Source: Candidatus Oxydemutator sp. | GTDB taxonomy: Bacteria > Pseudomonadota > Gammaproteobacteria > Poriferisulfidales > Oxydemutatoraceae | Reading direction: 5' to 3' | Length of the DNA: 64,000 nucleotides | NCBI GenBank assembly: GCA_965203445.1 | Contig: OZ241883.1 | Coordinates: forward strand, 2,193,843 to 2,257,842 | In this document: piece by piece, positions 31,075-48,975 of the stretch | Layout: every line of letters starts with the position of its first letter | How positions within the stretch are numbered: the first letter of the stretch is position 1 | The notes under the pieces: model-generated | What the model saw: the letters and a program-made list of their open reading frames with translations, nothing else | Told to the model about the DNA's origin: nothing | Databases searched by the model: none | Translations under genes and position numbers: made by a program

Positions 31075-31127
31075 TATAATAAAGCCTCTGACGAAGGCGC
31101 GTCGCGCGCGCACGCAGGAGAAACCCG

Positions 31128-31577: not shown

Positions 31578-31595
31578 GAAAACGCAAATCAGTCA

Positions 31596-32147
31596 ATGAA
31601 GACATTGATAAAAAACTCATCCTGCCGCTCCACAGCACTGTTCTTGTGCCTGATTACAGCTGGGTGCGCACCGCAAATACCCGAAGACGCCCTGCAACTC
31701 TCACCGGAAACTTTGGAGCAAAGAACTCTCCAGACAAGAAAATACGAAGGCATTTCCGAAAAAAAACTGTTGGCCGCCTCTACAGGCATCATACAAGACT
31801 TAGGATTTAATCTCGACGAAAGCGAAACAAGTCTAGGCATCGTGGTCGGCTCAAAAGAGAGGGACGCCACCGAGGCCGGTCAGATAATCCTTTCTGTCCT
31901 TCTCGCGTCACTCACTGGATCGGTAACGCCCGTTGACAAGGAACAAAAAATACGAGTGGCCCTAGTAATCAGGCCAGCAACTAAAGACGATGACAAAAAC
32001 CATTTCGTTAGGATCTCTTTTCAGAGGATTGTCTGGAACACCCAGGGGGATATAAGCAAAGTCGAAAGCATCAATGATCCAGAGATATATCAGAAGTTTT
32101 TTAGCAGTCTATCCAAATCCGTTTTCCTGGAGGCACAAGAAATATGA
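31596..32147 (+). CDS. Lipoprotein, unknown family, paralog A
   Basis: Lipobox ITAGC. Shares the blocks LQTRxxxxxxExKLLxAxxGIIQDLGF and DPxxYQxFFxxLxKSxFL with the next gene. Confidence 0.6.
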   Translation: MKTLIKNSSCRSTALFLCLITAGCAPQIPEDALQLSPETLEQRTLQTRKYEGISEKKLLAASTGIIQDLGFNLDESETSLGIVVGSKERDATEAGQIILSVLLASLTGSVTPVDKEQKIRVALVIRPATKDDDKNHFVRISFQRIVWNTQGDISKVESINDPEIYQKFFSSLSKSVFLEAQEI

Positions 32148-32569
32148 AACGATCAATGATCGCGCTGGTTTCGGTCGCTGTATGTTTTCTGGCGACAAGT
32201 TGCCAAATGTCTTCGAAACAGCAGATTTTAGCGACGTCGCAAAGTCAAGTCAGCCTGCGCAGTATCCAAACACGGGCATTTGATACGACGGAAAAAAATA
32301 AGACTCTGCGGACCGTCATAGCGACCCTGCAAGATTTGGGTTTCATAGTGGACAAAGCCGACGAAACTCTTGGCACTGTCAGCGCGACAAAATTAGACGG
32401 CTATCAACTCAGAATGACCGTCACGGTCCGCCCTAGAGGGAAAACGCAATTACTGGTCAGAGCGAGCGCTCAGTATCAAAACACGGCGGTGGATGACCCT
32501 CAACCCTATCAGGATTTTTTCACTGCTCTTGGAAAATCAATGTTCCTGACTGCACATTCAGTAGAGTGA
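32144..32569 (+). CDS. Lipoprotein, unknown family, paralog B
   Basis: Lipobox LATSC. ATGA start/stop overlap with paralog A. Same conserved blocks. Confidence 0.6.
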   Translation: MKRSMIALVSVAVCFLATSCQMSSKQQILATSQSQVSLRSIQTRAFDTTEKNKTLRTVIATLQDLGFIVDKADETLGTVSATKLDGYQLRMTVTVRPRGKTQLLVRASAQYQNTAVDDPQPYQDFFTALGKSMFLTAHSVE

Positions 32570-32715
32570 CAGCCTTCCCGACCAAATAGATCACGATACA
32601 CCCCGCCCGCAAACAAGTCTGAAACTCTGGCAACCGGCTATAAAAATAAACTGAGCTTCATGCTGATTGACTTGTCGCCACCCTCTCCTTTACACTTTCA
32701 GTCTGCTCCTTGCGT

Positions 32716-32791
32716 TCCCCGATAGCTCAGTTGGTAGAGCGGGTGACTGTTAATCACTAGGTCGGCGGTTCGAGCCCGTCTCGGGGAGCCA
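32716..32791 (+). tRNA. tRNA-Asn (GTT)
   Basis: 76 nt. Acceptor TCCCCGA/TCGGGGA, anticodon loop CTGTTAA, T-loop GGTTCGAGCC, terminal GCCA. Confidence 0.9.
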
Positions 32792-32865
32792 GATTGGCGA
32801 AAGCGCACGCTTTGCCCTCAGGCCGATACATCGGCACCCGTGTAAGAACACGGCGACGACAAAAA

Positions 32866-33759
32866 ATGACCGACGTGAAACCACTCCCTAAGATAAAAGA
32901 ACTTCTGTTCCCGACACTGAAGGCCATCAAAAAAGAAGGTGGTTCTGCGACCAAATCAGAGTTGGAGAAAACCGTTCCCGAGATTGCCGGAATCAGCGAA
33001 GCACAACTCGAAGTAAAGTTTCCGCAAGGATCTGCACATGAGGGACGCCCCAAGATTCTTTACAAGATCGGGTGGGTCCTTACGCAACTCAAAAAGTTGG
33101 AGGCGGTAAACAACAGCGAACGCGGGGTCTGGTCGGCCACTTCCACGGGACTCGAATACCTGGCAGATGAGAATAAACTGATAAAAGACTACAAGGCATT
33201 AAAAACTAAGCGGAACAAGTTGTATAAGTTAAGAAAAAACCAGATTGGACAGACAGAAGATCAAGAAGACAACATAGAAGACGACGAGGCGGAAGATGGC
33301 TGGAAGAACAGCCTGCTGAAGACACTGAAGAACATAGCCCCGGATGCATTCGAGCGCCTCACGATGCGCATCCTCAAAGAGGCCGGGTTTCGCAACGTCG
33401 AGGTCCTGGGCAAGTCGGGCGATCAGGGCATAGATGGCGTCGGCACGTATAAGGTGTCATTGGTGAGCTTCCCGACGTACTTTCAGTGCAAGCGCTATTT
33501 CGGCAGCGTCTCCGCCGGCGCCGTCAGAGACTTTCGCGGCGCCATGGCCGGCCGAGGCGACAAAGGCATACTCATCACCACCGGGACCTTCACCTCCTCT
33601 GCAAGGTCGGAAGCAAACAAACCCGGCGCGCCACCCATAGACCTGATTGACGGCGACGAATTGTGCGATCTGCTGGTCGAATACGAAATCGGAGTTCGCG
33701 TAGAACAACGAACCGTCAAGGACATCACCGTCGACAAAGGCTTTTTCGAGAGCGTCTGA
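32866..33759 (+). CDS. mrr: Mrr-family Type IV restriction endonuclease (Mrr_N winged helix plus Mrr_cat PD-(D/E)xK)
   Basis: Catalytic core GDQGIDGVG ... QCKRY ... ILITTGTFTS. Begins 75 nt after the tRNA-Asn 3' end. Confidence 0.8.
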   Translation: MTDVKPLPKIKELLFPTLKAIKKEGGSATKSELEKTVPEIAGISEAQLEVKFPQGSAHEGRPKILYKIGWVLTQLKKLEAVNNSERGVWSATSTGLEYLADENKLIKDYKALKTKRNKLYKLRKNQIGQTEDQEDNIEDDEAEDGWKNSLLKTLKNIAPDAFERLTMRILKEAGFRNVEVLGKSGDQGIDGVGTYKVSLVSFPTYFQCKRYFGSVSAGAVRDFRGAMAGRGDKGILITTGTFTSSARSEANKPGAPPIDLIDGDELCDLLVEYEIGVRVEQRTVKDITVDKGFFESV

Positions 33760-34023
33760 AGAGCATTTGCAAAGAACAAACGGCCTTTTATTTGGCGAGT
33801 ACCCTGCAAGAAACATTCTACGGAAATAGAATAGAAATTCTCCCAATGTCAGCGGGACTAATACTAATGTAGGGGGAAGGTCAGTCAAACTGAATTGCAA
33901 TTAAGGTCCGCACGAACGGGTACTGGTGTTTTAACTGTAAATAGGCGCTGAGAAGCACTTCGCCGACTCAATAGTTGACTAGGCACTTATAGCACCGAAC
34001 ATAGCCCAAGTACAAAATCTATT

Positions 34024-34497
34024 TCAGCTCTGCTCGTTATCAACAACCAGAACAGGGTCCGACTCCGTTTCCATTTTAATTTTTGACTTCTCACGCTGTT
34101 TCGTTGCTTTTGCCACTTGCTTTATGCGCTTTTTAGCTTCGTCGCTTTCAATCAAATCGCGTTTGATAACTTCATCAGCTATCATTTCCTTGATTTCATC
34201 CGCTCCAACCTTCAAGCCCGCCTTTATTTTTCGGACTTCTCTTCGGATTATATTTATCACCGGTTCCGTCAATAAAACTGCGCCGACGGTATAACGGTTT
34301 ACTGATTGCCTATATTCATAAAACTCAGTTATTACATCTTTTGCCACACCACGTTTGCACAACAGAAAAAGCATTTGCTGATGGTCGCCATTTTTCGGAT
34401 TTAACTCAAGAAAATCAAAAGCAAGCAGCTTTTTGCTCTGTACTTTTCCATCGCAATCAACCCTATGGATTTCCCAGTTTATTCCATTCGTCAACAT
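34024..34497 (-). CDS. Hypothetical protein in an AT-rich context, possibly a remnant of a restriction-enzyme N-terminal (HsdR_N-like) domain
   Basis: 157 aa with its own GGAGG SD. The TNGINWEIH segment resembles the C-terminal motif of HSDR_N domains. K/E-rich tail. Confidence 0.35.
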   Translation of the reverse strand: MLTNGINWEIHRVDCDGKVQSKKLLAFDFLELNPKNGDHQQMLFLLCKRGVAKDVITEFYEYRQSVNRYTVGAVLLTEPVINIIRREVRKIKAGLKVGADEIKEMIADEVIKRDLIESDEAKKRIKQVAKATKQREKSKIKMETESDPVLVVDNEQS

Positions 34498-34681
34498 CGC
34501 CCATTTAATTCCTCCCTTAGGCGCTTGACAGTTGTTGCGGGGACATTAGTGTTGGCCATAGTTCCTCCAATCCATAATTTTGTTTATGCCAAAAAGCCAC
34601 TTCCCAAGAGAAGCTTTTGGCTTCCATTGAAATGAATACTCTCCTGACATCTCTTACTATGACCAGAGTCACAGTCGTCGG

Positions 34682-34935
34682 GAGAAATTCCATTCTATCA
34701 GGCTGTCGTCTCCCAAAGCGTCTGCGACGGCACGGCATACAGTCTGTCGCCGAAAGGCAGGAGCCTCTCGCCGTTATACACCAGCACCCCGCCCGCGAAA
34801 CGTTCGCCCGTTGCGTCCCTGAGTTTGCGCAGTCCGCGAAAGTCGGACTTTGTGACTGTGGCAGACGTCTTCACCTCCACCCCCGCCAAGCCGTCGCGCC
34901 GCGCTCTATCACGATGTCCACTTCCGTACCGCCCC
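34682..34935. repeat. Left copy of an approximately 254-bp direct repeat that flanks the giant-protein gene
   Basis: About 88-90% identical to 47544-47797. Contains the 3' end of a DUF4143-ATPase coding sequence. Confidence 0.8.
34698..34889 (-). pseudogene. C-terminal fragment (63 aa) of a DUF4143 AAA-ATPase, duplicate of the 3' end of the gene at 47560-48804
   Basis: GVEVKTSATVTKSDFRGLRKLRDATGERFAGGVLVYNGERLLPFGDRLYAVP here versus GVEVKASATLKKSDFRGLRKLRDATGERFAGGVLVYNGERPLPFGDRLYAVP in the full-length gene. Confidence 0.75.
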
Positions 34936-35214
34936 TGTCCCCATCCGCCATCCGGCGGCGACGGCCTTGCACCAAGCCGGCGACGGCGTCAACCAAGCCA
35001 TGGCCGGCGACGCCAACCAGGCCACAACTTCCCCCCATACCATCCCGCCCCTCTCTCTATAATGCCGCCATGCCGCTGAACAAAGCGGATACGCGGGCCA
35101 AGCTGATTGACCCCGCCCTGCACCGGAAAAGACTACGACCGGGCGATTGGACGCGAACCCGGTGATGCGGACGCCCTACTACAACCGCGGAATTGCCAAA
35201 GCCAAGCGGGGCGA

Positions 35215-38200
35215 CTAACGGACGGCGCAGGCGAGGGGCAGAGTGTTTCCGATCTTATTCAGAATGATATAACGGCGGTCCGCCGAGAGCACCTCGCCGT
35301 CAAAGTCCAAATCGGCGTCTATCGCGTAGCCGTTGCCGGAGACCGCCCGGTAGTGCCGCCTGCCTATAGTCTCAAGGTTGCTCGCCCGGATCGCGGCCTC
35401 GTCGTCGGCGTCCACGTCATTGTCACCGTCGGTATCCCCGGCAAACATCGCATAGCGACCGCCGGCCAACGGCGCCTGGCAGTTCTGGTGCGACGGCTGG
35501 AGCCGGAAGTCCACGCAATAATCGGCACCGGCGCCGGCGTCGCAGGCGACGGCCGTGGCCGTCGCCATCACCGACAAATGATTGCGGTGGTGGATCAGCA
35601 CGTACAAATCCTCGCTCGCGCTATCTATGCCTGCGCCAAAAAGCACACCCTCGGTTCGCAGCGCGTCACCATTCAGGCCGTCCACGCCGACTATCGTGCC
35701 GTCGCCCAACAACAACGCCGCCTGGCGCGCCAACGGTGTGACGGCGGCCGCGGCGCCGGCGTGTCGCGGCGTCTTTCTCAACTCCACCAGTACCCAATCC
35801 ACGACCGTGTCGGTAACGCCGGACAAGCCGAAATCACCGGCACTCATCCCCGGCACCGTTATCTGCGGCGCGTTCCACGGCGCCGTCCCGTAGGGCGAAC
35901 TCGCCGGCAGATACTCGATCAACCGGGTTCTCATGCGATCGCCGCCGGCGTACGCGCCCTGCAAATATACGTGCGCGGACACCACGGAAATCCTGTCGCG
36001 TATGCCGACCTGCGACGCCGCCGGCACTCCTATTTCCGCGAACAGGCCGCAATTCCGGCAGCCCGTCAGCCGCAAACGAAACTGCTCGCCGCTTTCACCC
36101 GGCGTATCGTCGCCAGCCACCCGCACCGATACTCTCGCGATATCGCCGACGCCCACCGTTACGCTCCCGGTAACCGGCAGCGCGACCACCCGCACACTGG
36201 TAACGCCGCCGCGATCCATTGCGGTCACGCTCTGCAAGTCGGCGGGCGTCAAACCTTCGGAGACGGCGGTAATCTCATATTCCACGGTCACGGCGCCATC
36301 GCCGGCACCGACGCCCACCAGCCTCACCATAAACGTCGCAGTAGCACCCTCGTCCACCGTAGCGGACGCCGCCGCCACCGTCACTCGGAGATCTCCATTG
36401 GCCGCTATCGTCGTTTGCACGACGGAACCTCGACCCAAACTCGCGTTGTCGGCGTTCCCGCTAAGCACCGCGTCGCCCAACGACACCTCGAAAACCTCCT
36501 CCGGTTCGGAGAAACCGTCCACGGCCACCGCCAACGAGAACGACGCGCTGCTGCGACCCGGTGCGATGACCACGTTTCCTCTGGTCGTGTCGTCAAAGTC
36601 ATCGGCACCGACCACACCGCCGTCCACCGCCCAACTCCAACTCGCGGTCACGCCCAACGGCAACGCCCGCTCCAAACTCACCACGTAGCTCGCCCTCTCC
36701 CCTTCCGACACGGCCCTGCTCCCATCTAATACAGGCGTCAGACTTATCCTCGTTTGACTCGAATACTGCGCTTGTACGGTGGCTGTGGTTCGGCCCTGGC
36801 GCAATACCGGATATTGGAACGGACTGCCAAAGTCCCACGGCGCGTCGTCGTTCAAGTCGCGGTCGCCGCCCTGATCCACGCCGTCCACGTTCAACTTGTC
36901 CCAACCAGCGTAGATGCCCATAGCCGTCGTCGGGCCGCGCAACTCGGCTGACGTCCTGGACGACCGATACGGCAGCGACGCGCCTGAACCGCAACATGAC
37001 GATAGCCCGCTGCGCTCCGTGTCGAAGTAGCTTGACTGGATCTCGCCGCCGTCGGCACGCCATCCCGCCAACCCCCCCGTCACGCCGCCGCGCGCCGAAG
37101 GCTTCCCGATAGAGTAACTCGCGCTCACGACACCAGAATCGGCCAGAGCGCTCACCAAGCCCCCGGATAGGGCTTCGTCGCTGTTGTACTTCGCGTGCGC
37201 TTCTACGTTCGCGTAGCAGGCTATCACCGCTCCTTCATTCGTACCCACCAACCCGCCCGCGCCATAACCGGTTTTCACGCTGCCACCCACCACGTAGCTC
37301 GCCGCTATCCTGCCTTTGTTGATACCCGCCAACGCGCCCGCAACCACGGAGCGATCCGTCAAGTCCACCTCCACGTCCCTGAGGCCCGTGTTGCGGATCA
37401 TCCCCCCGGCACCCAAGATGCCGAACAAGCCCACGTTATCCAATCTCGACCCCAAAACGATTCTCATGCCGCTTATCACAAAACCGTTGCCCTCGAACGT
37501 CCCCGTGTATTCGTCGCCGGCGCCGTTGCCTCTGTTGGCAACGCCACCGCCCAACGGCTGCCACTCCACACCCGACAAATCCAGGTCATTCGACAATTCG
37601 TAGCCCCTGCAATCGCCCGCACACGTCTCGGCCTCGTCGAAAAACGAAAATGCCTCCTCGTAAGCAGCCTCGCCTTCATCATCCACGCCGCGCAAACCTT
37701 CGCCGCCCAAGTCATGGCGGATCGCCGCCAACTGCGACGTCGTCGCAACGTTTATCAGATTATTGCCGTCGGCGTCGTAATTTCTCCCATTCGAGGCGAT
37801 GACGCTGACGACCGCGGAACTGGCGACACCCAAATGCACGTTGTCCGGGCCTCGCAAATCGCTTAGCCTCACTCGATACGTCTCTCTCCGCTCCAGCGTC
37901 CCGTCCTGCGCTATCCGGATACTGAAAACCGCGCTGTTGGTATTGACCAGGGTTACCGTCCCTCTCGTCGAACTGGCAAAATCGGACGCCTCGGCGTGGC
38001 CGGCGCCGGAGCCGGTCAATTCCACCGACCAACTCATCGTCACCACGACGCTGCCGCCGGCATCCAATTCCACCGCGTACCTTACCGTCGAACCTTCCGC
38101 TGCCACAGCGTCGCTTCGCTGCGACAGCGTCACCGATATCGGCGACAGCAAGCGCCGCTGCACACCGGCAGCGGTGGTGTTGCCGTCGGGATAACGCGCG

Positions 38201-41200
38201 CTCACGCCGCGCAACACCGGATACTCCAAATCGCTCCCGAAATCCCACGGGCCGTCATCGTTCAACGTCACAACGCCCATGGCCGTGCTCGCCGCGTCGT
38301 CCACGTTCAACTCGTCCCAACCGGTATAGATGCCGACCGCCGTGGTCGGAATCCTCAACTGGGCGGACGTCCTCGACGTATCCGCGTCAAACGACGGCAT
38401 GTCCTGGCCGCAGCATGAAGCCTGCCCGCTGCGCACCCTGTCAAAGTAGCTTGCCTGAACGTCATATCTGACGGCGTCGGGCTCATTACGCCCCCCCCCC
38501 AACAAGCCACCCCTTAAGATGCTTCCGCCGTATTCTCCCCCTGTCACCATACCAATGGAGTAACTGGCGCTCACCACCGAACCTATACCGGCTTCGCCTA
38601 TCAAACCACCCGATCTGTGCACAATCGCATGCACTTCCACGTCCGCGTAACTCGCTATTACCGTGCCACTATTGATACCCACCAGACCGCCCGCCGAAAA
38701 GACGCCTCCTACGCTGCCGCCTATCACCCAACTCGCCGCCACTTTGCCGTGGTTACGACCCACCAAGGCGCCCGTATAATAACTGCCGCCCCACACTCTT
38801 ACGCTCACGTCCCTAAGACCCACGTTGCGGATTGTGCCGACGTCGCTTGTGCCACCAAACAACCCCGCGTGATGCAACCGTGACGACGGCCTGTGAATAC
38901 GCAATTTGCTTATGACGTGGCCGTTGCCTTCAAAAACAGCGGTGTAATACGCTATCGGATCGCCGCCCCCTATCGGCGTCCAGTTCTCTATGCCCGACAA
39001 GTCCAGGTCGTTCAACAATTCGTAGCCCTTGCAATCGCCCGCACACGTCGCGACCTCGTCGAAAAACGGAAACGCCTCTTCGTAAGCAGCCCTGTCTTCA
39101 TCATCCACGCCGCGCAAACCTTCGCCGCCCAAGTCATGGCGGATCGCCGCCAACTGCGACGTCGTCGAAACGTCTATCAGATTATTGCCGTCGGCGTCGT
39201 AATTTCTCCCATCCGGGGCGATGACGCTGACGACCGCGGAACTGGCGACACCCAAATGCACGTTGTCCGGGCCTCGCAAATCGCTTAACCTCACTCGATA
39301 CGTCTCTCTCCGATCCGGCGTCCCGTCCTGCGCTATCCGTATACTGAAAACCGCGCTGTCGGTATTGACCAGGGCCACCGTCCCTCTCGTCGAATCGGCA
39401 AAATCGGACGCCTCGGCGTGGCCGGCGCCGGAACCGGTCAATTCCACCGACCAACTCATCGTCACCACGACGCTGCCGACGGCATCCAATTCCACCACGT
39501 ACCTTACCGTCGAACCTTCCGCTACCACAGCGTCGCTTCGCTGCGACAGCGTCACCGATACCGGCGGCAGCAAGCGCCGCTGCACGCCGGCAGCGGTGGT
39601 GTTGCCACCGGGATAACGCGCGCTCACGCCACGCAACGCCGGATACTCCAAATCGCTCCCGAAATCCCACGGGCTGTCATCGTTCAACGTCACAACGCCC
39701 ATGGCCGTGCTCGCCGCGTCGTCCACGTTCAACTTGTCCCAACCGCTATAGATGCCGACCGCCGTGGTCGGAGCCCTCAACTGGGCGGACGTCCTCGACG
39801 TATCCGCGTCATACGACGGCACGTTCTGGCCGCAGCACGAAGTCTGCCCGCTGCGCACCCTGTCAAAGTAGCTTGCCTGAACGTCATATTTGTCGGCGTC
39901 GGTTTCATTACGCCCCCCCAACAAGCCGCCCCGTAAGGTGCTTCCATCGTATGTCCCCCCTGTCACCATACCAATGGAGTAACTGGCGCTCACCACCGAA
40001 CCTATACCGGCTTCGCCTATCAGACCACCCGATCCGTGTTCATCCGCATGCACTTCCACGTCCGCGTAACTCGCTATTACCGTGCCATAATTGGCACCCG
40101 CCAAACCGCCCGCCGACCAGACACCTTCTACGCTGCCGCCTACCACGTAACTCGCCGCCACTTTGCCGTGGTTACGGCCCACCAAGGCGCCCGTATAAAA
40201 ACTGCCGCCCCCCACTCTTACGTTCACGTCCCTAAGACCCACGTTGCGGATTGTGCCGACGTCGCTTGTGCCACCAAACAACCCCGCGTGATGCAACCGT
40301 GACGACGGCCTGTGAATACGCAATTTGCTTATGACGTGACCGTTGCCTTCAAAAACAGCGGTGTAATACGCTATCGGATCGCCCCCCCCTATCGGCGTCC
40401 AGTTCTCTATGCCCGACAAATCTACGTCGTTCAACAATTCGTAGCCCTTGCAACCGCCCGCACACGTCGCGACCTCGTCGAAAAACGGAAACGCCTCTTC
40501 GTAAGCAGCCCTGTCTTCATCATCCACGCCACGCAAACCTTCGCCGCCCAAGTCATGGCGGATCGCCGCCAACTGCGACGTCGTCGAAACGTCTATCAGA
40601 TTATTGCCGTCGGCGTCGTAATTTCTCCCATCCGGGGCGATGACGCTGACGACCGCGGAACTGGCGACATCCAAACGCACGTTGTCCGGACCTCGCAAAT
40701 CGCTTAGCCTCACTCGATACGTCTCTCTCCGATCCGGCGTCCCGTCCCGCGCTATCCGTATACTGAAAACCGCGCTGTCGGTATTGACCAGGGCCACCGT
40801 CCCTCTCGTCGAATCGGCAAAATCGGACGCCTCGGCGTGGCCGACGCCGGAACCGGTCAATTCCACCGACCAACTCATCGTCACCACGGCGCTGACGCCG
40901 GCATCCCATTCCACCGCGTACCTTACCGTCGAACCTTCCGCTACCACAGCGTCGCCTCGCTGCGACAACGCCACCAATACCGGCGACTGCAAGCGCCACT
41001 GCACGCCGGTAGCGGTGGTGTTGCCGTGGGGATAGCGCGCGCTCACGCCACGCAACACCGGATATTGGAACGGACTGCCAAAATCCCACGGGCTGTCATC
41101 GTTCAACGTCACAACGCCCATAGCCGTGCTCGCCACGCCGTCCACGTTCAACTTGTCCCAACCATCGTAGATGCCCGTCGCCGTGGTCGGCTCGCGCAAC

Positions 41201-44200
41201 TTCCCCACACTCCTGGCCGGCGACCCCGGCACACCCACGCCACCCCCGCCCCAACCGCCGACGTCGCCGGCATAGTAACTGCTCTGGATCACGTCATGTC
41301 TATGTCTATCACCGCTTCCCTCGTTGAAACCTACCACACCGCCAACTCTCGTTGCAGCCGGACTGTAGGGCAGCCGCTTCAACCGGGAGCGCGCATAACT
41401 CGCTATGATCCTGCCGCCACGGTTCCAACCCACCAGACCACCAGCCCGATCTCTTCGCACTGCCACGGTCACGTCGGCGTAAGAAGCGACGATCTCCTCT
41501 CTATTCTCATTCCTCTCATTCCTGCCCGTCAGACCGCCTACACCATAAAAGCCCCTCACCATACCGCCCACCACGTAGCTCGCCGCCACCTGGCCGAAGT
41601 TGGCACCCACCAGCGCACCCACCCAGAAGCTGATCGACTCGGCCACGTCGACGTTCACGTTCACCAGACCCACGTTGCGGACGACACCGTCGGAACCCAG
41701 AACACCGAACAAACCCACGGAATTCAAGTTCCTGACCGTACTCGACAAATGCAAACGTTCGATGACGTGGCCGTTACCCTCAAAGACCGCGTTGTAGCGA
41801 TTCCCGGGCGGATTGGCAAACGGGCCGAGTACGCGCCCGCCCCCTATCGGCGTCCAGTTGACGCCGGACAGGTCTATGTCGTTCAACAGTTCATAACCTT
41901 TGCAAGTGCCGGGACAACCCATGCCCTGCACGGCGTCGGGAAACGCAGCGCCATAGGCGGCGGCGGCGGCGTTGCCGGCGCCCGCCAGATCGTGGGCGAT
42001 GGCCTGCAACTGCGTCGAGGTCTCGACGTCTATCAAATTGTTGTCATTCACGTCATAGTCGACGCCCCCAGGATGCACTTCCGCGGTGGCTGTGGTTCGG
42101 CCCTGGCGCAATACCGGATATTGGAACGGACTGCCAAAGTCCCACGGCGCGTCGTCGTTCAAGTCGCGGTCGCCGCCCTGATCCACGCCGTCCACGTTCA
42201 ACTTGTCCCAACCAGCGTAGATGCCCATAGCTGTCGTCGGGCCGCGCAACTCGGCCGACGTCCTGGACGACCGATACGGCAGCGACGCGCCTGAACCGCA
42301 ACATGACGATAGCCCGCTGCGCTCCGTGTCGAAGTAGCTTGACTGGATCTCGCCGCCGTCGGCACGCCATCCCGCCAACCCCCCCGTCACGCCGCCGCGC
42401 GCCGAAGGCTTCCCGATAGAGTAACTCGCGCTCACGACACCAGAATCGGCCAGAGCGCTCACCAAGCCCCCGGATAGGGCTTCGTCGCTGTTGTACTTCG
42501 CGTGCGCTTCTACGTTCGCGTAGCAGGCTATCACCGCTCCTTCATTCGTACCCACCAACCCGCCCGCGCCATAACCGGTTTTCACGCTGCCACCCACCAC
42601 GTAGCTCGCCGCTATCCTGCCTTTGTTGATACCCGCCAACGCGCCCGCAACCACGGAGCGATCCGTCAAGTCCACCTCCACGTCCCTGAGGCCCGTGTTG
42701 CGGATCATCCCCCCGGCACCCAAGATGCCGAACAAGCCCACGTTATCCAATCTCGACCCCAAAACGATTCTCATGCCGCTTATCACAAAACCGTTGCCCT
42801 CGAACGTCCCCGTGTATTCGTCGCCGGCGCCGTTGCCTCTGTTGGCAACGCCACCGCCCAACGGCTGCCACTCCACACCCGACAAATCCAGGTCATTCGA
42901 CAATTCGTAGCCCCTGCAATCGCCCGCACACGTCTCGGCCTCGTCGAAAAACGAAAATGCCTCCTCGTAAGCAGCCTCGCCTTCATCATCCACGCCGCGC
43001 AAACCTTCGCCGCCCAAGTCATGGCGGATCGCCGCCAACTGCGACGTCGTCGCAACGTTTATCAGATTATTGCCGTCGGCGTCGTAATTTCTCCCATTCG
43101 AGGCGATGACGCTGACGACCGCGGAACTGGCGACACCCAAATGCACGTTGTCCGGGCCTCGCAAATCGCTTAGCCTCACTCGATACGTCTCTCTCCGCTC
43201 CGGCGTCCCGTCCTGCGCTATCCGTATACTGAAAACCGCGCTGTTGGTATTGACCAGGGCTACCGTCCCTCTCGTCGAACTGGCAAAATCGGACGCCTCG
43301 GCGTGGCCGGCGCCGGAGCCGGTCAATTCCACCGACCAACTCATCGTCACCACGACGCTGCCGCCGGCATCCAATTCCACCGCGTACCTTACCGTCGAAC
43401 CTTCCGCTGCCACAGCGTCGCTTCGCTGCGACAGCGTCACCGATATCGGCGACAGCAAGCGCCGCTGCACACCGGCAGCGGTGGTGTTGCCGTCGGGATA
43501 ACGCGCACTCACGCCGCGCAACACCGGATACTCCAAATCGCTCCCGAAATCCCACGGGCCGTCATCGTTCAACGTCACAACGCCCATGGCCGTGCTCGCC
43601 GCGTCGTCCACGTTCAACTTGTCCCAACCGGTATAGATGCCGACCGCCGTGGTCGGAATCCTCAACTGGGCGGACGTCCTCGACGTATCCGCGTCATACG
43701 ACGGCATGTCCTGGCCGCAGCATGAAGCCTGCCCGCTGCGCACCCTGTCAAAGTAGCTTGCCTGAACGTCATATCTGACGGCGTCGGGTTCATTACGCCC
43801 CCCCCCCAACAAGCCACCCCTTAAGATGCTTCCGCCGTATTCTCCCCCTGTCACCATACCAATGGAGTAACTGGCGCTCACCACCGAACCTATACCGGCT
43901 TCGCCTATCAAACCACCCGATCTGTGCACAATCGCATGCACTTCCACGTCCGCGTAACTCGCTATTACCGTGCCACTATTGATACCCACCAGACCGCCCG
44001 CCGACCAGACCCCTCCTACGCTGCCGCCTATCACCCAACTCGCCGCCACTTTGCCGTGGTTACGACCCACCAAGGCGCCCGTATAAATACTGCTGCCCCA
44101 CACTCTTACGCTCACGTCCCTTAGGCCCACGTTGCGGATTGTGCCGACGTCGCTTGTGCCACCAAACAACCCCGCGTGATGCAACCGTGACGACGGCCTG

Positions 44201-47200
44201 TGAATACGCAATTTGCTTATGACGTGGCCGTTGCCTTCAAAAACAGCGGTGTAATACACTATCGGATCGCTGCCCCCTATCGGCGTCCAGTTCTCTATGC
44301 CCGACAAGTCCAGGTCGTTTAACAATTCGTAGCCCTTGCAATCGCCCGCACAAGTCGCAACCTCGTCGAAAAACGGAAATGCCTCGTCGTAAGCAGCCTT
44401 GTCTTCATCATCCACGCCGCGCAAACCTTCGCCGCCCAAGTCATGGCGGATCGCCGCCAACTGCGACGTCGTCGTAACGTCTATCAGATTATTGCCGTCG
44501 GCGTCGTAATTTCTCCCATTCGGGGCGATGACGCTGACGACCGCGGAACTGGCGACACCCAAATGCACGTTGTCCGGACCTCGCAAATCGCTTAACCTCA
44601 CTCGATACGTCTCTCTCCGATCCGGCGTCCCGTCCTGCGCTATCCGTATCCTGAAAACCGCCCTGTCGGTATTGACCAGGGCCACCGTGCCTCTCGTCGA
44701 ATCGGCAAAATCGGACGCCTCGGCGTGGCCGGCGCCGGAACCGGTCAATTCCACCGACCAACTCATCGTCACCACGACGCTGCCGACGGCATCCAATTCC
44801 ACCACGTACCTTACCGTCGAACCTTCCGCTACCACAGCGTCGCTTCGCTGCGACAGCGTCACCGATACCGGCGGCAGCAAGCGCCGCTGCACGCCGGCAG
44901 CGGTGGTGTTGCCACCGGGATAACGCGCGCTCACGCCGCGCAACGCCGGATACTCCAAATCGCTCCCGAAATCCCACGGGCTGTCATCGTTCAACGTCAC
45001 AACGCCCATGGCCGTGCTCGCCACGCCGTCCACGTTCAACTTGTCCCAACCGGTATAGATGCCGACCGCCGTGGTCGGAGCCCTCAACTGGGCGGACGTC
45101 CTCGACGTATCCGCGTCATACGACGGCACGTTCTGGCCGCAGCACGAAGACTGCCCGCTGCGCACCCTGTCAAAGTAGCTTGCCTGAACGTCATATTTGT
45201 CGGCGTCGGGTTCATTACGCCCCCCCAACAAACCACCCCGTAAGGTGCTTCCACCGTATGTCCCCCCTGTCACCATACCAATGGAGTAACTGGCGCTCAC
45301 CACCGAACCTATACCGGCTTCGCCTATCAGACCACCCGATCGGTGCTCATCCGCATGCACTTCCACGTCCGCGTAACTCGCTATTACCGTGCCATAATTG
45401 GCACCCGCCAAACCGCCCGCCGCCCAAACACCTTCTACGCTGCCGCCTACCACGTAACTCGCCGCCACTTTGCCGTCGTTACGGCCCACCAAGGCGCCCG
45501 TATAAATACTGCTGTCTCCCACGTGTACGTTCACGTCCCTAAGGCCCACGTTGCGGATTGTGCCGACGCTGCTTGTGCCACCAAACAACCCCGCGTGATG
45601 CAACCGTGACGACGGCCTGTGAATACGCAATTTGCTTATGACGTGGCCGTTGCCTTCAAAAACAGCAGAGTAATGCTCTATCGGATCGCCGCCCCCTATC
45701 GGCGCCCAATTCTCTATGCCCGATAAATCCAGGTCGTTTAACAATTCGTAGCCCTTGCAGCCGCCCGCACACGTCGCGACCTCGTCGAAAAACGGAAATG
45801 CCTCTTCGTAAGCAGCCCCGTCTCCATCATCCACGCCGCGCAAACCTTCGCCGCCCAAGTCATGGCGGATCGCCGCCAACTGCGACGTCGTCGTAACGTC
45901 TATCAGATTATTGCCGTCGGCGTCGTAATTTCTCCCATCCGGGGCGATGACGCTGACGACCGCGGAACTGGCGACACCCAAATACACGTTGTCCGGACCT
46001 CGCAAATCGCTTAGCCTCACTCGATACGTCTCTCTCCGATCCGGCGTCCCGTCCTGCGCTATCCGTATCCTGAAAACCGCGCTGTCGGTATTGACCAAAA
46101 CCACCGTCCCTCTCGTCGAATCGGCAAAATCGGACGCCTCGGCGTGGCCGGCGCCGGAACCGGTCAATTCCACCGACCAACTCATCGTCACCACGGCGCT
46201 GACGCCGGCATCCCATTCCACCGCGTACCTTACCGTCGAGCCTTCCGCTACCACAGCGTCGCCTCGCTGCGACAACGCCACCAATACCGGCGACTGCAAG
46301 CGCCACTGCACGCCGGTAGCGGTGGTGTTGCCGTGGGGATAGCGCGCGCTCACGCCACGCAACACCGGATATTGGAACGGACTGCCAAAATCCCACGGGC
46401 TGTCATCGTTCAACGTCACAACGCCCATAGCCGTGCTCGCCACGCCGTCCACGTTCAACTTGTCCCAACCATCGTAGATGCCCGTCGCCGTGGTCGGCTC
46501 GCGCAACTTCCCCACACTCCTGGCCGGCGACCCCGGCACACCCACGCCACCCCCGCCCCAACCGCCGACGTCGCCGGCATAGTAACTGCTCTGGATCACG
46601 TCAAATCTATGTCTATCACCGCTTCCCTCGTTCAAACCCACCACACCGCCAACTCCCGTTGCAGCCGGACTGTAGGGCAGCCGCTTCAACCGGGAGCGCG
46701 CATAACTCGCTATGATCCTGCCGCCACGGTTCCAACCCACCAGACCACCAGCCCGATCTCTTCGCACTGCCACGGTCACGTCGGCGTAAGAAGCGACGAT
46801 CTCCTCTCTATTCTCATTCCTCTCATTCCTGCCCGTCAGACCGCCTACACCATAATGGCCCCTCACCATACCGCCCACCACGTAGCTCGCCGCCACCTGG
46901 CCGAAGTTGGCACCCACCAGCGCACCCACCCAGAAGCTGATCGACTCGGCCACGTCGACGTTCACGTTCACCAGACCCACGTTGCGGACGACACCGTCGG
47001 AACCCAGAACACCGAACAAACCCACGGAATTCAAGTTCCTGACCGTACTCGACAAATGCAAACGTTCGATGACGTGGCCGTTACCCTCAAAGACCGCGTT
47101 GTAGCGATTCCCGGGCGGATTGGCAAACGGGCCGAGTACGCGCCCGCCCCCTATCGGCGTCCAGTTGACGCCGGACAGGTCTATGTCGTTCAACAGTTCA

Positions 47201-47451
47201 TAACCTTTGCAAGTGCCGGGACAACCCATGCCCTGCACGGCATCGGGAAACGCAGCGCCATAGGCGGCGGCGGCGGCGTTGCCGGCGCCCGCCAGATCGT
47301 GGGCGATGGCCTGCAACTGCGTCGAGGTCTCGACGTCTATCAAATTGTTGTCATTCACGTCATAGTCGACGCCCCCGGGAGGGGTTTGGGCCGCGGCGCC
47401 GACGGTAAAAACCATCAGCGCCAGACACGCAGCAATTCTCATTGCCCACAC
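35215..47451 (-). CDS. Giant secreted modular surface protein of 4078 aa. It has a signal peptide, eight GLUG-motif/Calx-beta-like modules and a C-terminal dockerin-like Ca-binding segment
   Basis: N-terminal signal peptide MWAMRIAACLALMVFTVGAAAQ. Repeated GGLxGxNxG/ASY (GLUG-type) segments. Calx-beta-like blocks (TMSWSVELTGSGAGHAEASDF...VxLVNTDSAVFxIRIAQDGTPDRRETYRVRLSDL). C-terminal DTDGDNDVDADD...DLDFDGEV. Confidence 0.8.
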   Translation of the reverse strand: MWAMRIAACLALMVFTVGAAAQTPPGGVDYDVNDNNLIDVETSTQLQAIAHDLAGAGNAAAAAYGAAFPDAVQGMGCPGTCKGYELLNDIDLSGVNWTPIGGGRVLGPFANPPGNRYNAVFEGNGHVIERLHLSSTVRNLNSVGLFGVLGSDGVVRNVGLVNVNVDVAESISFWVGALVGANFGQVAASYVVGGMVRGHYGVGGLTGRNERNENREEIVASYADVTVAVRRDRAGGLVGWNRGGRIIASYARSRLKRLPYSPAATGVGGVVGLNEGSGDRHRFDVIQSSYYAGDVGGWGGGGVGVPGSPARSVGKLREPTTATGIYDGWDKLNVDGVASTAMGVVTLNDDSPWDFGSPFQYPVLRGVSARYPHGNTTATGVQWRLQSPVLVALSQRGDAVVAEGSTVRYAVEWDAGVSAVVTMSWSVELTGSGAGHAEASDFADSTRGTVVLVNTDSAVFRIRIAQDGTPDRRETYRVRLSDLRGPDNVYLGVASSAVVSVIAPDGRNYDADGNNLIDVTTTSQLAAIRHDLGGEGLRGVDDGDGAAYEEAFPFFDEVATCAGGCKGYELLNDLDLSGIENWAPIGGGDPIEHYSAVFEGNGHVISKLRIHRPSSRLHHAGLFGGTSSVGTIRNVGLRDVNVHVGDSSIYTGALVGRNDGKVAASYVVGGSVEGVWAAGGLAGANYGTVIASYADVEVHADEHRSGGLIGEAGIGSVVSASYSIGMVTGGTYGGSTLRGGLLGGRNEPDADKYDVQASYFDRVRSGQSSCCGQNVPSYDADTSRTSAQLRAPTTAVGIYTGWDKLNVDGVASTAMGVVTLNDDSPWDFGSDLEYPALRGVSARYPGGNTTAAGVQRRLLPPVSVTLSQRSDAVVAEGSTVRYVVELDAVGSVVVTMSWSVELTGSGAGHAEASDFADSTRGTVALVNTDRAVFRIRIAQDGTPDRRETYRVRLSDLRGPDNVHLGVASSAVVSVIAPNGRNYDADGNNLIDVTTTSQLAAIRHDLGGEGLRGVDDEDKAAYDEAFPFFDEVATCAGDCKGYELLNDLDLSGIENWTPIGGSDPIVYYTAVFEGNGHVISKLRIHRPSSRLHHAGLFGGTSDVGTIRNVGLRDVSVRVWGSSIYTGALVGRNHGKVAASWVIGGSVGGVWSAGGLVGINSGTVIASYADVEVHAIVHRSGGLIGEAGIGSVVSASYSIGMVTGGEYGGSILRGGLLGGGRNEPDAVRYDVQASYFDRVRSGQASCCGQDMPSYDADTSRTSAQLRIPTTAVGIYTGWDKLNVDDAASTAMGVVTLNDDGPWDFGSDLEYPVLRGVSARYPDGNTTAAGVQRRLLSPISVTLSQRSDAVAAEGSTVRYAVELDAGGSVVVTMSWSVELTGSGAGHAEASDFASSTRGTVALVNTNSAVFSIRIAQDGTPERRETYRVRLSDLRGPDNVHLGVASSAVVSVIASNGRNYDADGNNLINVATTSQLAAIRHDLGGEGLRGVDDEGEAAYEEAFSFFDEAETCAGDCRGYELSNDLDLSGVEWQPLGGGVANRGNGAGDEYTGTFEGNGFVISGMRIVLGSRLDNVGLFGILGAGGMIRNTGLRDVEVDLTDRSVVAGALAGINKGRIAASYVVGGSVKTGYGAGGLVGTNEGAVIACYANVEAHAKYNSDEALSGGLVSALADSGVVSASYSIGKPSARGGVTGGLAGWRADGGEIQSSYFDTERSGLSSCCGSGASLPYRSSRTSAELRGPTTAMGIYAGWDKLNVDGVDQGGDRDLNDDAPWDFGSPFQYPVLRQGRTTATAEVHPGGVDYDVNDNNLIDVETSTQLQAIAHDLAGAGNAAAAAYGAAFPDAVQGMGCPGTCKGYELLNDIDLSGVNWTPIGGGRVLGPFANPPGNRYNAVFEGNGHVIERLHLSSTVRNLNSVGLFGVLGSDGVVRNVGLVNVNVDVAESISFWVGALVGANFGQVAASYVVGGMVRGFYGVGGLTGRNERNENREEIVASYADVTVAVRRDRAGGLVGWNRGGRIIASYARSRLKRLPYSPAATRVGGVVGFNEGSGDRHRHDVIQSSYYAGDVGGWGGGGVGVPGSPARSVGKLREPTTATGIYDGWDKLNVDGVASTAMGVVTLNDDSPWDFGSPFQYPVLRGVSARYPHGNTTATGVQWRLQSPVLVALSQRGDAVVAEGSTVRYAVEWDAGVSAVVTMSWSVELTGSGVGHAEASDFADSTRGTVALVNTDSAVFSIRIARDGTPDRRETYRVRLSDLRGPDNVRLDVASSAVVSVIAPDGRNYDADGNNLIDVSTTSQLAAIRHDLGGEGLRGVDDEDRAAYEEAFPFFDEVATCAGGCKGYELLNDVDLSGIENWTPIGGGDPIAYYTAVFEGNGHVISKLRIHRPSSRLHHAGLFGGTSDVGTIRNVGLRDVNVRVGGGSFYTGALVGRNHGKVAASYVVGGSVEGVWSAGGLAGANYGTVIASYADVEVHADEHGSGGLIGEAGIGSVVSASYSIGMVTGGTYDGSTLRGGLLGGRNETDADKYDVQASYFDRVRSGQTSCCGQNVPSYDADTSRTSAQLRAPTTAVGIYSGWDKLNVDDAASTAMGVVTLNDDSPWDFGSDLEYPALRGVSARYPGGNTTAAGVQRRLLPPVSVTLSQRSDAVVAEGSTVRYVVELDAVGSVVVTMSWSVELTGSGAGHAEASDFADSTRGTVALVNTDSAVFSIRIAQDGTPDRRETYRVRLSDLRGPDNVHLGVASSAVVSVIAPDGRNYDADGNNLIDVSTTSQLAAIRHDLGGEGLRGVDDEDRAAYEEAFPFFDEVATCAGDCKGYELLNDLDLSGIENWTPIGGGDPIAYYTAVFEGNGHVISKLRIHRPSSRLHHAGLFGGTSDVGTIRNVGLRDVSVRVWGGSYYTGALVGRNHGKVAASWVIGGSVGGVFSAGGLVGINSGTVIASYADVEVHAIVHRSGGLIGEAGIGSVVSASYSIGMVTGGEYGGSILRGGLLGGGRNEPDAVRYDVQASYFDRVRSGQASCCGQDMPSFDADTSRTSAQLRIPTTAVGIYTGWDELNVDDAASTAMGVVTLNDDGPWDFGSDLEYPVLRGVSARYPDGNTTAAGVQRRLLSPISVTLSQRSDAVAAEGSTVRYAVELDAGGSVVVTMSWSVELTGSGAGHAEASDFASSTRGTVTLVNTNSAVFSIRIAQDGTLERRETYRVRLSDLRGPDNVHLGVASSAVVSVIASNGRNYDADGNNLINVATTSQLAAIRHDLGGEGLRGVDDEGEAAYEEAFSFFDEAETCAGDCRGYELSNDLDLSGVEWQPLGGGVANRGNGAGDEYTGTFEGNGFVISGMRIVLGSRLDNVGLFGILGAGGMIRNTGLRDVEVDLTDRSVVAGALAGINKGRIAASYVVGGSVKTGYGAGGLVGTNEGAVIACYANVEAHAKYNSDEALSGGLVSALADSGVVSASYSIGKPSARGGVTGGLAGWRADGGEIQSSYFDTERSGLSSCCGSGASLPYRSSRTSAELRGPTTAMGIYAGWDKLNVDGVDQGGDRDLNDDAPWDFGSPFQYPVLRQGRTTATVQAQYSSQTRISLTPVLDGSRAVSEGERASYVVSLERALPLGVTASWSWAVDGGVVGADDFDDTTRGNVVIAPGRSSASFSLAVAVDGFSEPEEVFEVSLGDAVLSGNADNASLGRGSVVQTTIAANGDLRVTVAAASATVDEGATATFMVRLVGVGAGDGAVTVEYEITAVSEGLTPADLQSVTAMDRGGVTSVRVVALPVTGSVTVGVGDIARVSVRVAGDDTPGESGEQFRLRLTGCRNCGLFAEIGVPAASQVGIRDRISVVSAHVYLQGAYAGGDRMRTRLIEYLPASSPYGTAPWNAPQITVPGMSAGDFGLSGVTDTVVDWVLVELRKTPRHAGAAAAVTPLARQAALLLGDGTIVGVDGLNGDALRTEGVLFGAGIDSASEDLYVLIHHRNHLSVMATATAVACDAGAGADYCVDFRLQPSHQNCQAPLAGGRYAMFAGDTDGDNDVDADDEAAIRASNLETIGRRHYRAVSGNGYAIDADLDFDGEVLSADRRYIILNKIGNTLPLACAVR
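36772..47385. repeat. Near-identical tandem duplication with a 5307-bp period (two copies, about 36772-42078 and 42079-47385) inside the giant gene. Each copy is built from four sub-modules of about 1.42 kb
   Basis: Antisense ORF pairs are offset by exactly 5307 nt (37195/42502, 37760/43067, 39182/44489, 40601/45908, 40837/46144). They are identical or differ at about 1% of residues. Internal offsets of 1419-1422 nt, for example 38893/40312. Confidence 0.85.
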
Positions 47452-47543
47452 CTTGGCTATGCGGAATTAGAGAGGGAGGGTGTAATCATCAGGATATTGT
47501 ACAACAGTCGACCTTCCTCCTGAATCAGGGCCGCAGTCATTGA

Positions 47544-47797
47544 GAGAAATCCCATTGTATCAGGCTGTTGCCCCCCAAAGCATCTGCAACGGCACGGCAT
47601 ACAGTCTGTCGCCGAAAGGCAGGGGTCTCTCGCCATTATAAACCAGTACCCCGCCGGCAAAGCGTTCGCCCGTTGCGTCCCTGAGTTTGCGCAGTCCGCG
47701 AAAGTCGGACTTTTTGAGCGTGGCGGACGCCTTCACTTCCACCCCCGTCAAAGCCATCGCGTCGCGCTCTATCACGATGTCCACTTCCGCGCCGCCC
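47544..47797. repeat. Right copy of the approximately 254-bp direct repeat (inside the 3' end of the intact DUF4143 ATPase gene)
   Basis: See 34682-34935. Confidence 0.8.
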
Positions 47798-48804
47798 TTG
47801 TCTCGATAGTGGTAGAAGGTATGCGGTTCCTGATGTCCGCTTGCCTGCCGCCTCAATTCCTGCAAGACAAACGATTCCAGCATGTGACCGAACAGGGGGC
47901 CGTTGTACGCAAGTGCCGCGCCGTTCAATTTCATCAAAGCGCAGGCAATTCCGGTATCGCTGACGTGCAGTTTGGGGGTCTTTATCAAGGATTGCAGGCG
48001 ATTGCTGTGCCACGCCGGCAATTTTTCCAGCAAAAACATTTTTTCCAACAGGAAAAGATAGTCTCGGACGGCGGTGCGGCTGAGTGCAAACGACGTCGCC
48101 AAGCCGTTCACGCTCAAGAGCCGGGCGGTCTGCGCCGCGGCCATCAACAGCAACCGGGACAGATTTTCAGGCGAGCGGATTGCGGCCACGTCCGGCACGT
48201 CGTGTTGGACGAGAGCCCTGATGTATCCGTTGTACCACGCCGTGCGCCTTCTGCCGGAACGTTGCAGTGCCGCCGGGTAGCCGCCGGCCACAACGCGATC
48301 CGCGATTTGCTCCCGCGCGGGCCTGCCTCGTCGCGCCTGAAAGGTCGTGGCAAACAGGGAGTCAAGAAACGTGGGCGCGGTCTGGGCAAGTTCGCATTGT
48401 GAGAAAGGATGCAGGTCTATGATTTCCATGCGGCCCGCAAGCGAATCGGCAATTTGGCGCACCTGCAACACGTTCACCGAACCAGTCAGCAGAAAGCGCC
48501 CCGGCGTGCGGTTGCGGTCAACCATCAGTTTGATGGATGAGAATAACCAGGGAACCCGCTGCGCCTCGTCCAATATGACGCGCTCGGACAAGTTATTGGC
48601 AAAGCCGACGGGATCTTCTTCGACGGACTTGCGCACGTCGTCGTCGTCGAAACTGATGTACTCGTAACCCGCGGTTCGCCCAACCATCTGGGCAAGCGTC
48701 GTTTTGCCGCACTGACGCGCCCCTTGAATCAGCACGACGGGAGAATCCGCCAGCGCTTCTTTCAGACGCGGTTCGACGTGGCGTGTGTAGTCGGTTTCGA
48801 TCAC
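47560..48804 (-). CDS. AAA+ ATPase with a C-terminal DUF4143 domain (COG1373 family)
   Basis: Walker A GARQCGKTT near the N-terminus and a Walker B-like ILDEAQ. 414 aa. The C-terminal DUF4143-type region is duplicated at 34698-34889. Confidence 0.8.
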   Translation of the reverse strand: MIETDYTRHVEPRLKEALADSPVVLIQGARQCGKTTLAQMVGRTAGYEYISFDDDDVRKSVEEDPVGFANNLSERVILDEAQRVPWLFSSIKLMVDRNRTPGRFLLTGSVNVLQVRQIADSLAGRMEIIDLHPFSQCELAQTAPTFLDSLFATTFQARRGRPAREQIADRVVAGGYPAALQRSGRRRTAWYNGYIRALVQHDVPDVAAIRSPENLSRLLLMAAAQTARLLSVNGLATSFALSRTAVRDYLFLLEKMFLLEKLPAWHSNRLQSLIKTPKLHVSDTGIACALMKLNGAALAYNGPLFGHMLESFVLQELRRQASGHQEPHTFYHYRDKGGAEVDIVIERDAMALTGVEVKASATLKKSDFRGLRKLRDATGERFAGGVLVYNGERPLPFGDRLYAVPLQMLWGATA

Positions 48805-48810
48805 AGTGTT

Positions 48811-48962
48811 CTAATTGTATATCTATAAGCCTTCTAATTGCACATTTATATGTGTATTTTTCTGGTATTTACAAGGGGAACAAACCATATATTATTGATA
48901 TAAAAATATATTTTATGTCTATTATAATTGCACATTTATGGGTATTCTAATTGCACATTTGA
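48811..48962. promoter_or_regulatory. AT-rich promoter/operator region with three or four direct copies of (C)TAATTGCACATTT(A/G)
   Basis: Exact copies at 48834-48848, 48925-48940 and 48947-48962. A degenerate copy CTAATTGTATATCTA at 48811-48825. Copies are paired at spacings of 22-23 bp. Lies upstream of the ATPase gene start at 48804. Confidence 0.45.
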
Positions 48963-48975
48963 CGGGGATATATTG

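Follow-up and report, generated by a model that had tools for sequence, protein, structure and literature searches.

The DNA analysed here, referred to as the window, is a 64-kb stretch of contig OZ241883.1 from a Candidatus Oxydemutator sp. assembly (GCA_965203445.1), and all coordinates below are positions in it. Its minus strand carries an intact giant open reading frame (ORF) at 35215–47451 (stop codon at 35215–35217), which runs to 4078 codons when counted from a GTG and encodes a protein built of repeated modules. The original prediction, made from this sequence before any database search, was of a secreted modular giant protein encoded by a 4078-aa ORF, and both its coordinates and its ORF length are correct. 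The true start is probably the ATG at 47442, the fourth codon, which would give a protein of 4075 aa, since AAGGTG lies 7 nt upstream of this ATG and the N-terminus of a homologue (P0257; MRIAACL...) aligns with it.

The protein consists of a signal peptide, four modules in the order A-B-C-D, the same four modules again, and a 519-aa C-terminal region. The modules measure 484 (A), 473 (B), 474 (C) and 338 aa (D); A, B and C each end in a 120-aa Calx-beta-like domain, and D has none, so that the predicted array of eight modules of one architecture stands for six of the eight and fails for both D modules. The parts of the gene, in the direction of transcription, are as follows.

47389–47451, minus strand: Sec-type signal peptide (MRIAACLALMVFTVGAAA followed by Q; cleavage between AAA and Q), read by eye from the sequence and conserved in P0257
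45937–47388, minus strand: module A1 (aa 22–505), with F-hand-like cap, GLUG beta-helix and Calx-beta-like spacer (aa 385–505); PF07581 match
44518–45936, minus strand: module B1 (aa 506–978), with cap, beta-helix and Calx-beta-like spacer; AlphaFold2 model and profile match to 3n6z
43096–44517, minus strand: module C1 (aa 979–1452); DNA 94% identical to B1
42082–43095, minus strand: module D1 (aa 1453–1790), cap and beta-helix only, lacking the Calx-like domain
40630–42081, minus strand: module A2 (aa 1791–2274)
39211–40629, minus strand: module B2 (aa 2275–2747)
37789–39210, minus strand: module C2 (aa 2748–3221), with a sub-threshold Pfam Calx-beta match at aa 3172–3218
36775–37788, minus strand: module D2 (aa 3222–3559)
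35962–36774, minus strand: two C-terminal sandwiches of Calx-beta fold (aa 3560–3830)
35446–35961, minus strand: conserved X-module-like beta-sandwich (aa 3831–4002; motifs LQGAY, VDWVLVELR and HRNHL), outside Pfam and NCBIfam models
35245–35445, minus strand: dockerin-like pair of F-hand segments (aa 4003–4069; DTDGDNDVDADD... and DLDFDGEVLSAD...), from the family profile and loop pattern

At the DNA level B and C are 94% identical, and A and D are 60–71% identical to B/C and to one another. Gly, Val and Ala abound in the protein, which is acidic (470 Asp + Glu versus 308 Lys + Arg), with regularly spaced Cys pairs, a CxxxC and a CC in each module and two further pairs in the C-terminal region; the signal peptide, the conserved Cys pairs and the acidic composition argue for an extracytoplasmic location. 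The Cys at position 6 was considered as a lipobox and rejected as lying too near the N-terminus.

Profile searches and structure modelling indicate that every module is a right-handed beta-helix of the GLUG type. PF07581 passes its gathering score only in module A (21.6 versus 20.5 bits), scores 8.3 bits in B and finds no match in D; most of 84 module-B homologues carry it. A profile of the module family matches the PDB entry 3n6z, a ‘putative immunoglobulin A1 protease’, with an E-value of 1.9e-23 and pneumococcal IgA1 protease (6xja, 7jgj) at 1e-20, both over ~175–290 residues, with matches confined to the beta-helix at chain residues ~171–365. The AlphaFold2 model of B1 is a compact right-handed beta-helix with a predicted local distance difference test (pLDDT) score above 90 over residues 1–330. 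A Foldseek search with the B1 beta-helix model gave only a weak top match (6xja, E 3e-3), and the sequence profile was relied on instead. The predicted GLUG assignment is borne out by the PF07581 match in A, the homologues and the profile matches to GLUG structures.

Each module begins with a DADGNNLIDV turn, whose Asp/Asn residues are spaced 1-3-5-9 as in an F-hand loop and which, in the AlphaFold2 model of B1, is followed by a helix. We infer, from its resemblance to the motif only, that this turn may bind Ca2+. The suggestion that a dockerin-like turn opens each module holds at the level of this motif and not at that of profiles, as the turns give no dockerin profile match.

The spacers between helices are more weakly characterised. 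A profile of 15 intra-module spacers finds CBDs of Na+/Ca2+ exchangers as its five best PDB matches (E 0.0017–0.02), and 2 of 15 related spacer domains reach PF03160 at E ≤ 0.01, with module 1 of the spacer alignment unmatched; these data weakly suggest that the spacers are Calx-beta-like. The two C-terminal domains at aa 3560–3830 are strongly indicated to have the Calx-beta fold, like the exchanger CBDs, and the Calx-beta assignment made from the sequence is accordingly strong for these two domains and weak for the spacers.

The C-terminal sandwich-dockerin unit

The last 248 residues comprise a beta-sandwich followed by two loop-helix segments, and they go unrecognised by Pfam and by NCBIfam, the latter having no model for any part of the giant protein. 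The AlphaFold2 model of the C-terminal region has a mean pLDDT of 80.9. A profile of the C-terminal family matches solved dockerins (4fl4, 2vn5 and others) at E-values of 1.9e-5 to 1e-2, DTDGDNDVDADD is a canonical dockerin-type Ca2+ loop, and PF00404 passes its cut-off of 22.9 bits in remote members of the family (L025, 28.1 bits; L043, 28.5 bits). The profile match and the canonical loop support the C-terminal dockerin-like segment that had been proposed.

A HMMER search of this unit against 1.84 billion cluster representatives returns 4,526 proteins at E ≤ 1e-3, 905 at ≤ 1e-10 and 32 at ≤ 1e-30. At least 565 loci in GTDB representative genomes encode it, and the best 80 of these at least 565 loci are nearly all from Bacteroidales, other Bacteroidota, Ignavibacteria, Chlorobiota, Calditrichia and Rhodothermales; the best matches in this genome scan, run with a trimmed alignment, are only 28–40% identical. 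In most of 43 loci examined the unit ends 0–20 residues before the stop codon, and the N-terminal parts of the proteins that bear it vary: cohesin with Big_2, lamin-tail with PKD and endonuclease/exonuclease/phosphatase, GEVED, fn3 and others. Dockerin_1 scores above its own cut-off in 2 of 10 unit-bearing proteins. Among close relatives of the unit, one protein of 5,165 aa (P0250) carries, as judged by eye, one GLUG module and long runs of sandwich repeats, and two others (P0087 and P0088) carry the cadherin-like PF12733 in precomputed annotation. Two further proteins, of 3,586 (P0261) and 2,794 aa (P0253), are long repetitive chains whose repeats, again by eye, share the acidic motif of the Calx-beta domains described here. 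The unit also caps P0257, a 4,087-aa GLUG-Calx protein of the same kind as the giant protein. These matches indicate that the unit is a shared device of secreted proteins and not peculiar to the giant gene.

A separate observation concerns two metagenome-assembled genomes of Bacteroidales (L005, 8252–10654; L012, 8240–10642), where cohesin domains, Big_2 and the same C-terminal unit stand in one chain. Proteins of this type could both dock and be docked, in the manner of a scaffoldin.

It is conceivable, if rather speculative, that the unit defines a large undescribed display system of Gram-negative bacteria outside cellulosomes, in which XDoc-like (X-module-dockerin-like) anchors would attach giant adhesins and enzymes to surface proteins that bear cohesins. 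Such a system would be widespread among Bacteroidota and their kin and would have been acquired by this gammaproteobacterial lineage. A competing explanation is that the unit is a secretion or sorting signal akin to the C-terminal domains of type IX cargo, removed or used in export, and not a cohesin-binding anchor. Such a signal would fit the position of the unit, which forms the very C-terminal end of cargo proteins of great diversity, and most of its relatives are found in Bacteroidota, Ignavibacteriota, Calditrichota and Chlorobiota, the phyla known to rely on type IX secretion. It would also fit the failure to find a cohesin near the giant gene, where a tblastn search of two cohesin domains against the window gave no match. 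We nevertheless consider a sorting signal unlikely, as the host is gammaproteobacterial by the gene order of its relatives (ftsA-ftsZ-lpxC-secA-mutT/NUDIX) and by its HflX relatives, Pfam finds neither Por_Secre_tail nor other type IX domains in the giant protein, the unit has canonical dockerin Ca2+ loops and a likeness to X-module-dockerin structures, and some relatives hold cohesin domains within the same protein.

Duplication of the four-module block

We find that the eight modules fall into two units joined by a short in-frame junction.

42083–47376, minus strand: duplicated unit 1, the 5' copy in gene orientation (A1-B1-C1-D1)
42070–42082, minus strand: in-frame D1-to-A2 junction (...TTAT-AEVHP-GGVDYD...), from sequence inspection
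36776–42069, minus strand: duplicated unit 2, the 3' copy (A2-B2-C2-D2)

Self-comparison at an offset of 5307 nt shows 91–92 mismatches in ~5294 nt and no indels, an identity of 98.3%, with 98.8% in A, 96.7% in B, 98.3% in C and 99.6% in D. This confirms the predicted doubling of a 5307-bp unit of four modules, for which an identity of about 99% was slightly too high, and the inner repeat periods within each unit, 1422 and 1419 nt, agree with the predicted 1.42 kb. A repeat of 5.3 kb at 98% identity leaves no room for chance. Tandem Repeats Finder misses the array solely because it handles periods no longer than 500. The differences between units comprise 59 transitions and 32 transversions, and the differing codons are 33 synonymous and 48 non-synonymous, giving a synonymous divergence (dS) of 0.0285, a non-synonymous divergence (dN) of 0.0138 and a dN/dS of 0.48.

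The breakpoints lie exactly at domain borders, one just past the signal peptide and the other where module D gives way to the C-terminal Calx domains. The junction itself contains ~15 nt that match neither the start of the mature protein nor the passage from D2 into the C-terminal region. In all metagenome relatives the Calx-less helix closes the module array, immediately ahead of the C-terminal Calx domains, so that the internal D1 of the giant gene marks a duplication that took in the complete block A-B-C-D. The sequence thus indicates that the gene grew by in-frame tandem duplication of this four-module block.

Two 5.3-kb units at 98.3% identity, with identical stretches of up to 945 nt between them, make a hard assembly, and a 24-mer specific to the junction has no match in JGI metagenomes. 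Both points speak for the possibility that the second unit is an assembly artefact, one unit having been expanded or a larger or variable array collapsed, and that the true copy number is not two. We judge this to be very unlikely. The ~15 nt at the D1-to-A2 junction occur nowhere else in the gene, and an assembler cannot invent them; the junction must be present in reads, which implies two units or more. Only substitutions separate the copies, with an excess of transitions and of synonymous changes, a pattern that looks like evolved sequence and unlike assembly error. The reading frame stays open across 12.2 kb, an identical HflX on a 2.38-Mb contig suggests a long-read assembly able to span 12 kb, and an independent eight-module homologue exists (P0257). 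On this sequence evidence fewer than two copies appear excluded, and there may be more than two or variation within the population. The earlier view that the duplication could equally be an assembly expansion therefore overstates the risk, given that substitutions alone suffice to tell the two copies apart and that their junction is unique.

The predicted duplication itself is upheld, and its description as very recent proves too simple. Differences between the units are distributed unevenly over the modules (18, 47, 24 and 4 nt in A, B, C and D, respectively; heterogeneity chi-square p = 3e-7), and dS varies ~7-fold among them, from 0.008 in D through 0.014 in A and 0.029 in C to 0.058 in B. 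One run of 945 nt is free of mismatches, which has a probability of ~9e-8 under a uniform rate, and a comparison of B with C reveals six sites common to B and C within the same unit and none of the opposite pattern. Such uneven divergence suggests gene conversion or unequal exchange, both between the copies and between B and C. One recent event followed by clock-like decay would not explain this pattern, which points to two copies partly re-homogenised by gene conversion or unequal exchange since the duplication; the divergence at the junction would fit an older duplication in which conversion has kept the interior similar.

Relatives of the whole gene suggest that such growth is habitual. Close homologues, with 50–76% identity per module, are found only in ENA metagenome assemblies, mainly in low-coverage long-read contigs of ERZ25070167, and JGI relatives of module A are only 32% identical. 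The gene calls of the ENA relatives are fragmented, and tblastn shows a common plan of signal peptide, a variable number of helix-Calx modules, a final helix, one or two Calx domains and the C-terminal unit. The metagenome loci contain from 3 to more than 7 modules and up to three paralogues in tandem, and some variants carry a double Calx domain internally. One ERZ25070167 contig (L001) holds three such paralogues in tandem, which implies that one organism can hold several genes of the family. P0257 is an intact GLUG-Calx protein of 4,087 aa, with eight modules and a signal peptide that is almost the same. Protein-level identity reaches 94% between its modules 7 and 8 and 72–74% within the pairs 4/6 and 5/7, which points to independent module duplications of its own. 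From these comparisons, expansion by tandem module duplication appears to be a habit of the family, and a variable number of modules its normal state.

Genomic setting

The giant gene lies in a stretch of lower GC content, at ~31000–48900 of the window (0.50–0.63 versus 0.65–0.70), with an aminotransferase gene on one side and thrC-hom on the other. The same stretch contains three small lipoprotein genes, a gene for the restriction endonuclease Mrr and an AAA_14/DUF4143 ATPase gene. Two features flank the giant gene directly.

47560–48804, minus strand: AAA_14 + DUF4143 ATPase gene, next to the giant gene on its upstream side; listed as context and separate from the giant protein
34664–34939, minus strand: remnant of the 3' part of a second DUF4143 gene, frameshifted and immediately downstream of the giant gene

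The remnant at 34664–34939 is a direct repeat of 47526–47802 (87.7% identity over 277 nt), at the 3' end of the intact ATPase gene, so that the two copies bracket the giant gene. This repeat may go back to a former tandem arrangement or to an insertion.

In relatives whose HflX proteins are 89% and 80% identical, ftsA-ftsZ-lpxC-M23-secA-argJ-NUDIX, an order typical of Gammaproteobacteria, stands beside hflX instead of the lower-GC island. In a third relative (L087; HflX 87% identical) a type II CRISPR-Cas locus with a Csx12-type Cas9, cas1, cas2 and cas4 lies beside hflX, and a gene of the giant family is located on the other side, after purA. The absence of the island from the hflX neighbourhood of relatives (L084, L085 and L087) places the giant gene in a flexible part of the genome. 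The best named relatives of HflX belong to Gammaproteobacteria and Steroidobacteraceae, at ~55% identity. None of the island genes recurs beside giant-family genes in the related loci, and promoter and terminator scans of both flanks of the giant gene give nothing above background.

Several further features of the window were recorded. The three lipoprotein genes are consecutive on the plus strand (31128–32569), with lipoboxes LLSAC, ITAGC and LATSC; the first product is weakly BamE-like, and the other two resemble each other and match no family. Their interpretation as a CsgG-like secretion cluster (31–32.6 kb) was dropped, as the preceding ORF is an aminotransferase gene and the only matches are the weak ones to BamE. 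At 29235–31079 (plus strand), a 614-aa ORF starting with GTG is an Arg-rich wrong-frame artefact, the real gene being a class I/II aminotransferase at 29884–31074. The AT-rich intergenic region upstream of the DUF4143 gene (48830–48975) has about four copies of a ATGTGCAATTAnAA motif, among which lies a 23-nt tandem repeat (48912–48960), and resembles a set of operator sites. A serine-cycle-like cluster at ~16400–21800 comprises a class V aminotransferase, a ligase pair of ATP-grasp and CoA-binding type and a 2-hydroxyacid dehydrogenase, together with a malyl-CoA-lyase-like HpcH/HpaI gene that is seen in relatives, and hints at a methylotrophic lifestyle. A gene for an enzyme of the MbnB/TglH/ChrH family, which modifies ribosomally synthesised and post-translationally modified peptides, is located at 9094–10527 (plus strand), and a metagenome locus (L002, 1–382) has another member of this enzyme family a few kb away from a gene of the giant family.

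Proposed function and known systems

We favour, with moderate confidence, the interpretation that the gene encodes a Sec-exported, acidic, Ca2+-stabilised and tethered giant surface protein, a non-fimbrial adhesin or scaffold that has been doubled by in-frame block duplication; Ca2+ binding, surface location, dockerin tethering and adhesion are all inferred. The protein would be exported through its Sec signal and folded with Ca2+ into a long semi-rigid chain, and its XDoc-like C-terminus would tether it to a cell-surface partner, as the X-module-dockerin does in a clostridial scaffoldin. Eight beta-helix faces, of four types present twice each and related yet non-identical, would then be presented to a ligand, and doubling of the block would lengthen the reach of the chain and double its valency.

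Several results weigh against this interpretation. A Sec substrate of 4,000 residues needs a route across the outer membrane, and no secretion system was found within the window, nor was a cohesin gene or an anchoring partner. Pfam calls no dockerin in the giant protein, where PF00404 is unmatched even at E ≤ 10, and PF03160 scores 25.8 bits over the whole protein, under its gathering score of 27; the spacer in B1 is modelled by AlphaFold2 with low confidence. For the history of the copies, mis-assignment of reads between near-identical repeats could give consensus errors that would explain the divergence pattern in part.

Right-handed beta-helices include many polysaccharide lyases and hydrolases, and the closest solved relatives of the modules carry the annotation IgA1 protease. 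It is nonetheless highly improbable that the beta-helices are catalytic and the protein a multi-headed enzyme, for instance a protease or a polysaccharide lyase, as the N-terminal beta-helix of Streptococcus pneumoniae IgA1 protease, which is homologous to the modules, is non-catalytic, binds the substrate Fab and gates an active site whose catalysis occurs elsewhere (PMC7695701), and Pfam and NCBIfam match no peptidase, lyase or hydrolase family anywhere in the giant protein. Because this homologous helix binds Fab, we assign the modules of the proposed surface protein a probable ligand-binding role.

Giant repetitive surface proteins shape bacterial attachment and are often mis-assembled or left ‘hypothetical’. 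The gene described here would be a clean example of gene doubling, in which a domain-exact duplication of a block of modules is followed by homogenisation. It also suggests that the GLUG beta-helix, whose function is barely studied and whose literature is almost empty apart from passing mentions and the work on IgA1 protease, can serve as the repeating element of a fibre 4,000 residues long. The most promising lead comes from the C-terminal sandwich-dockerin unit, very widespread and lacking a model, which may be a general anchoring device outside cellulosomes and merits a profile of its own for annotation.

Among known systems, the giant protein may work like the giant Ca2+-dependent adhesins of Gram-negative bacteria. 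LapA, SiiE and MpIBP are type I-secreted adhesins of this kind, multi-thousand-residue, acidic chains of Ca2+-dependent beta-sandwich repeats, and their genes carry near-identical tandem repeats in variable number. The giant protein differs from them in its N-terminal Sec signal and in its repeat, which is a beta-helix of ~350 residues plus a Calx-beta spacer and not a single Ig-like domain. Pfam finds no RTX repeats in it, and its neighbours are the ATPase, Mrr, lipoprotein and thrC genes, with no type I secretion genes found nearby. Nor does it resemble type V proteins: Pfam and NCBIfam match neither a C-terminal beta-barrel nor an N-terminal TPS domain, and its C-terminus is a soluble sandwich followed by a dockerin.

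The likeness to 3n6z and pneumococcal IgA1 protease is one of fold, the module profile matching both and the beta-helix being common to both. The giant protein differs from IgA1 proteases in repeating this helix eight times with no attached peptidase domain, Pfam searches finding no M26 catalytic domain in it, and each of its modules adds an N-terminal YDxDxNxLIDV loop, a CxxxC pair and a CC pair. The Calx-beta comparison is with PF03160, as in CBD1 and CBD2 of the Na+/Ca2+ exchanger and in integrin beta4, from which the giant protein departs in staying below the Pfam cut-off. In clostridial cellulosomes an XDoc unit anchors the scaffoldin to cell-surface cohesins (PMC5141474). The C-terminus of the giant protein resembles the type II X-module-dockerin of CipA/ScaA (3kcp, 5g5d) in fold and position, and differs from it in belonging to a Gram-negative host outside a cellulosomal context, in its larger sandwich with motifs of its own (VDWVLVELR and HRNHL) and in sharing only 13–14% sequence identity. 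We conclude that the giant protein is a new domain combination of known parts, enlarged by an ordinary mechanism.

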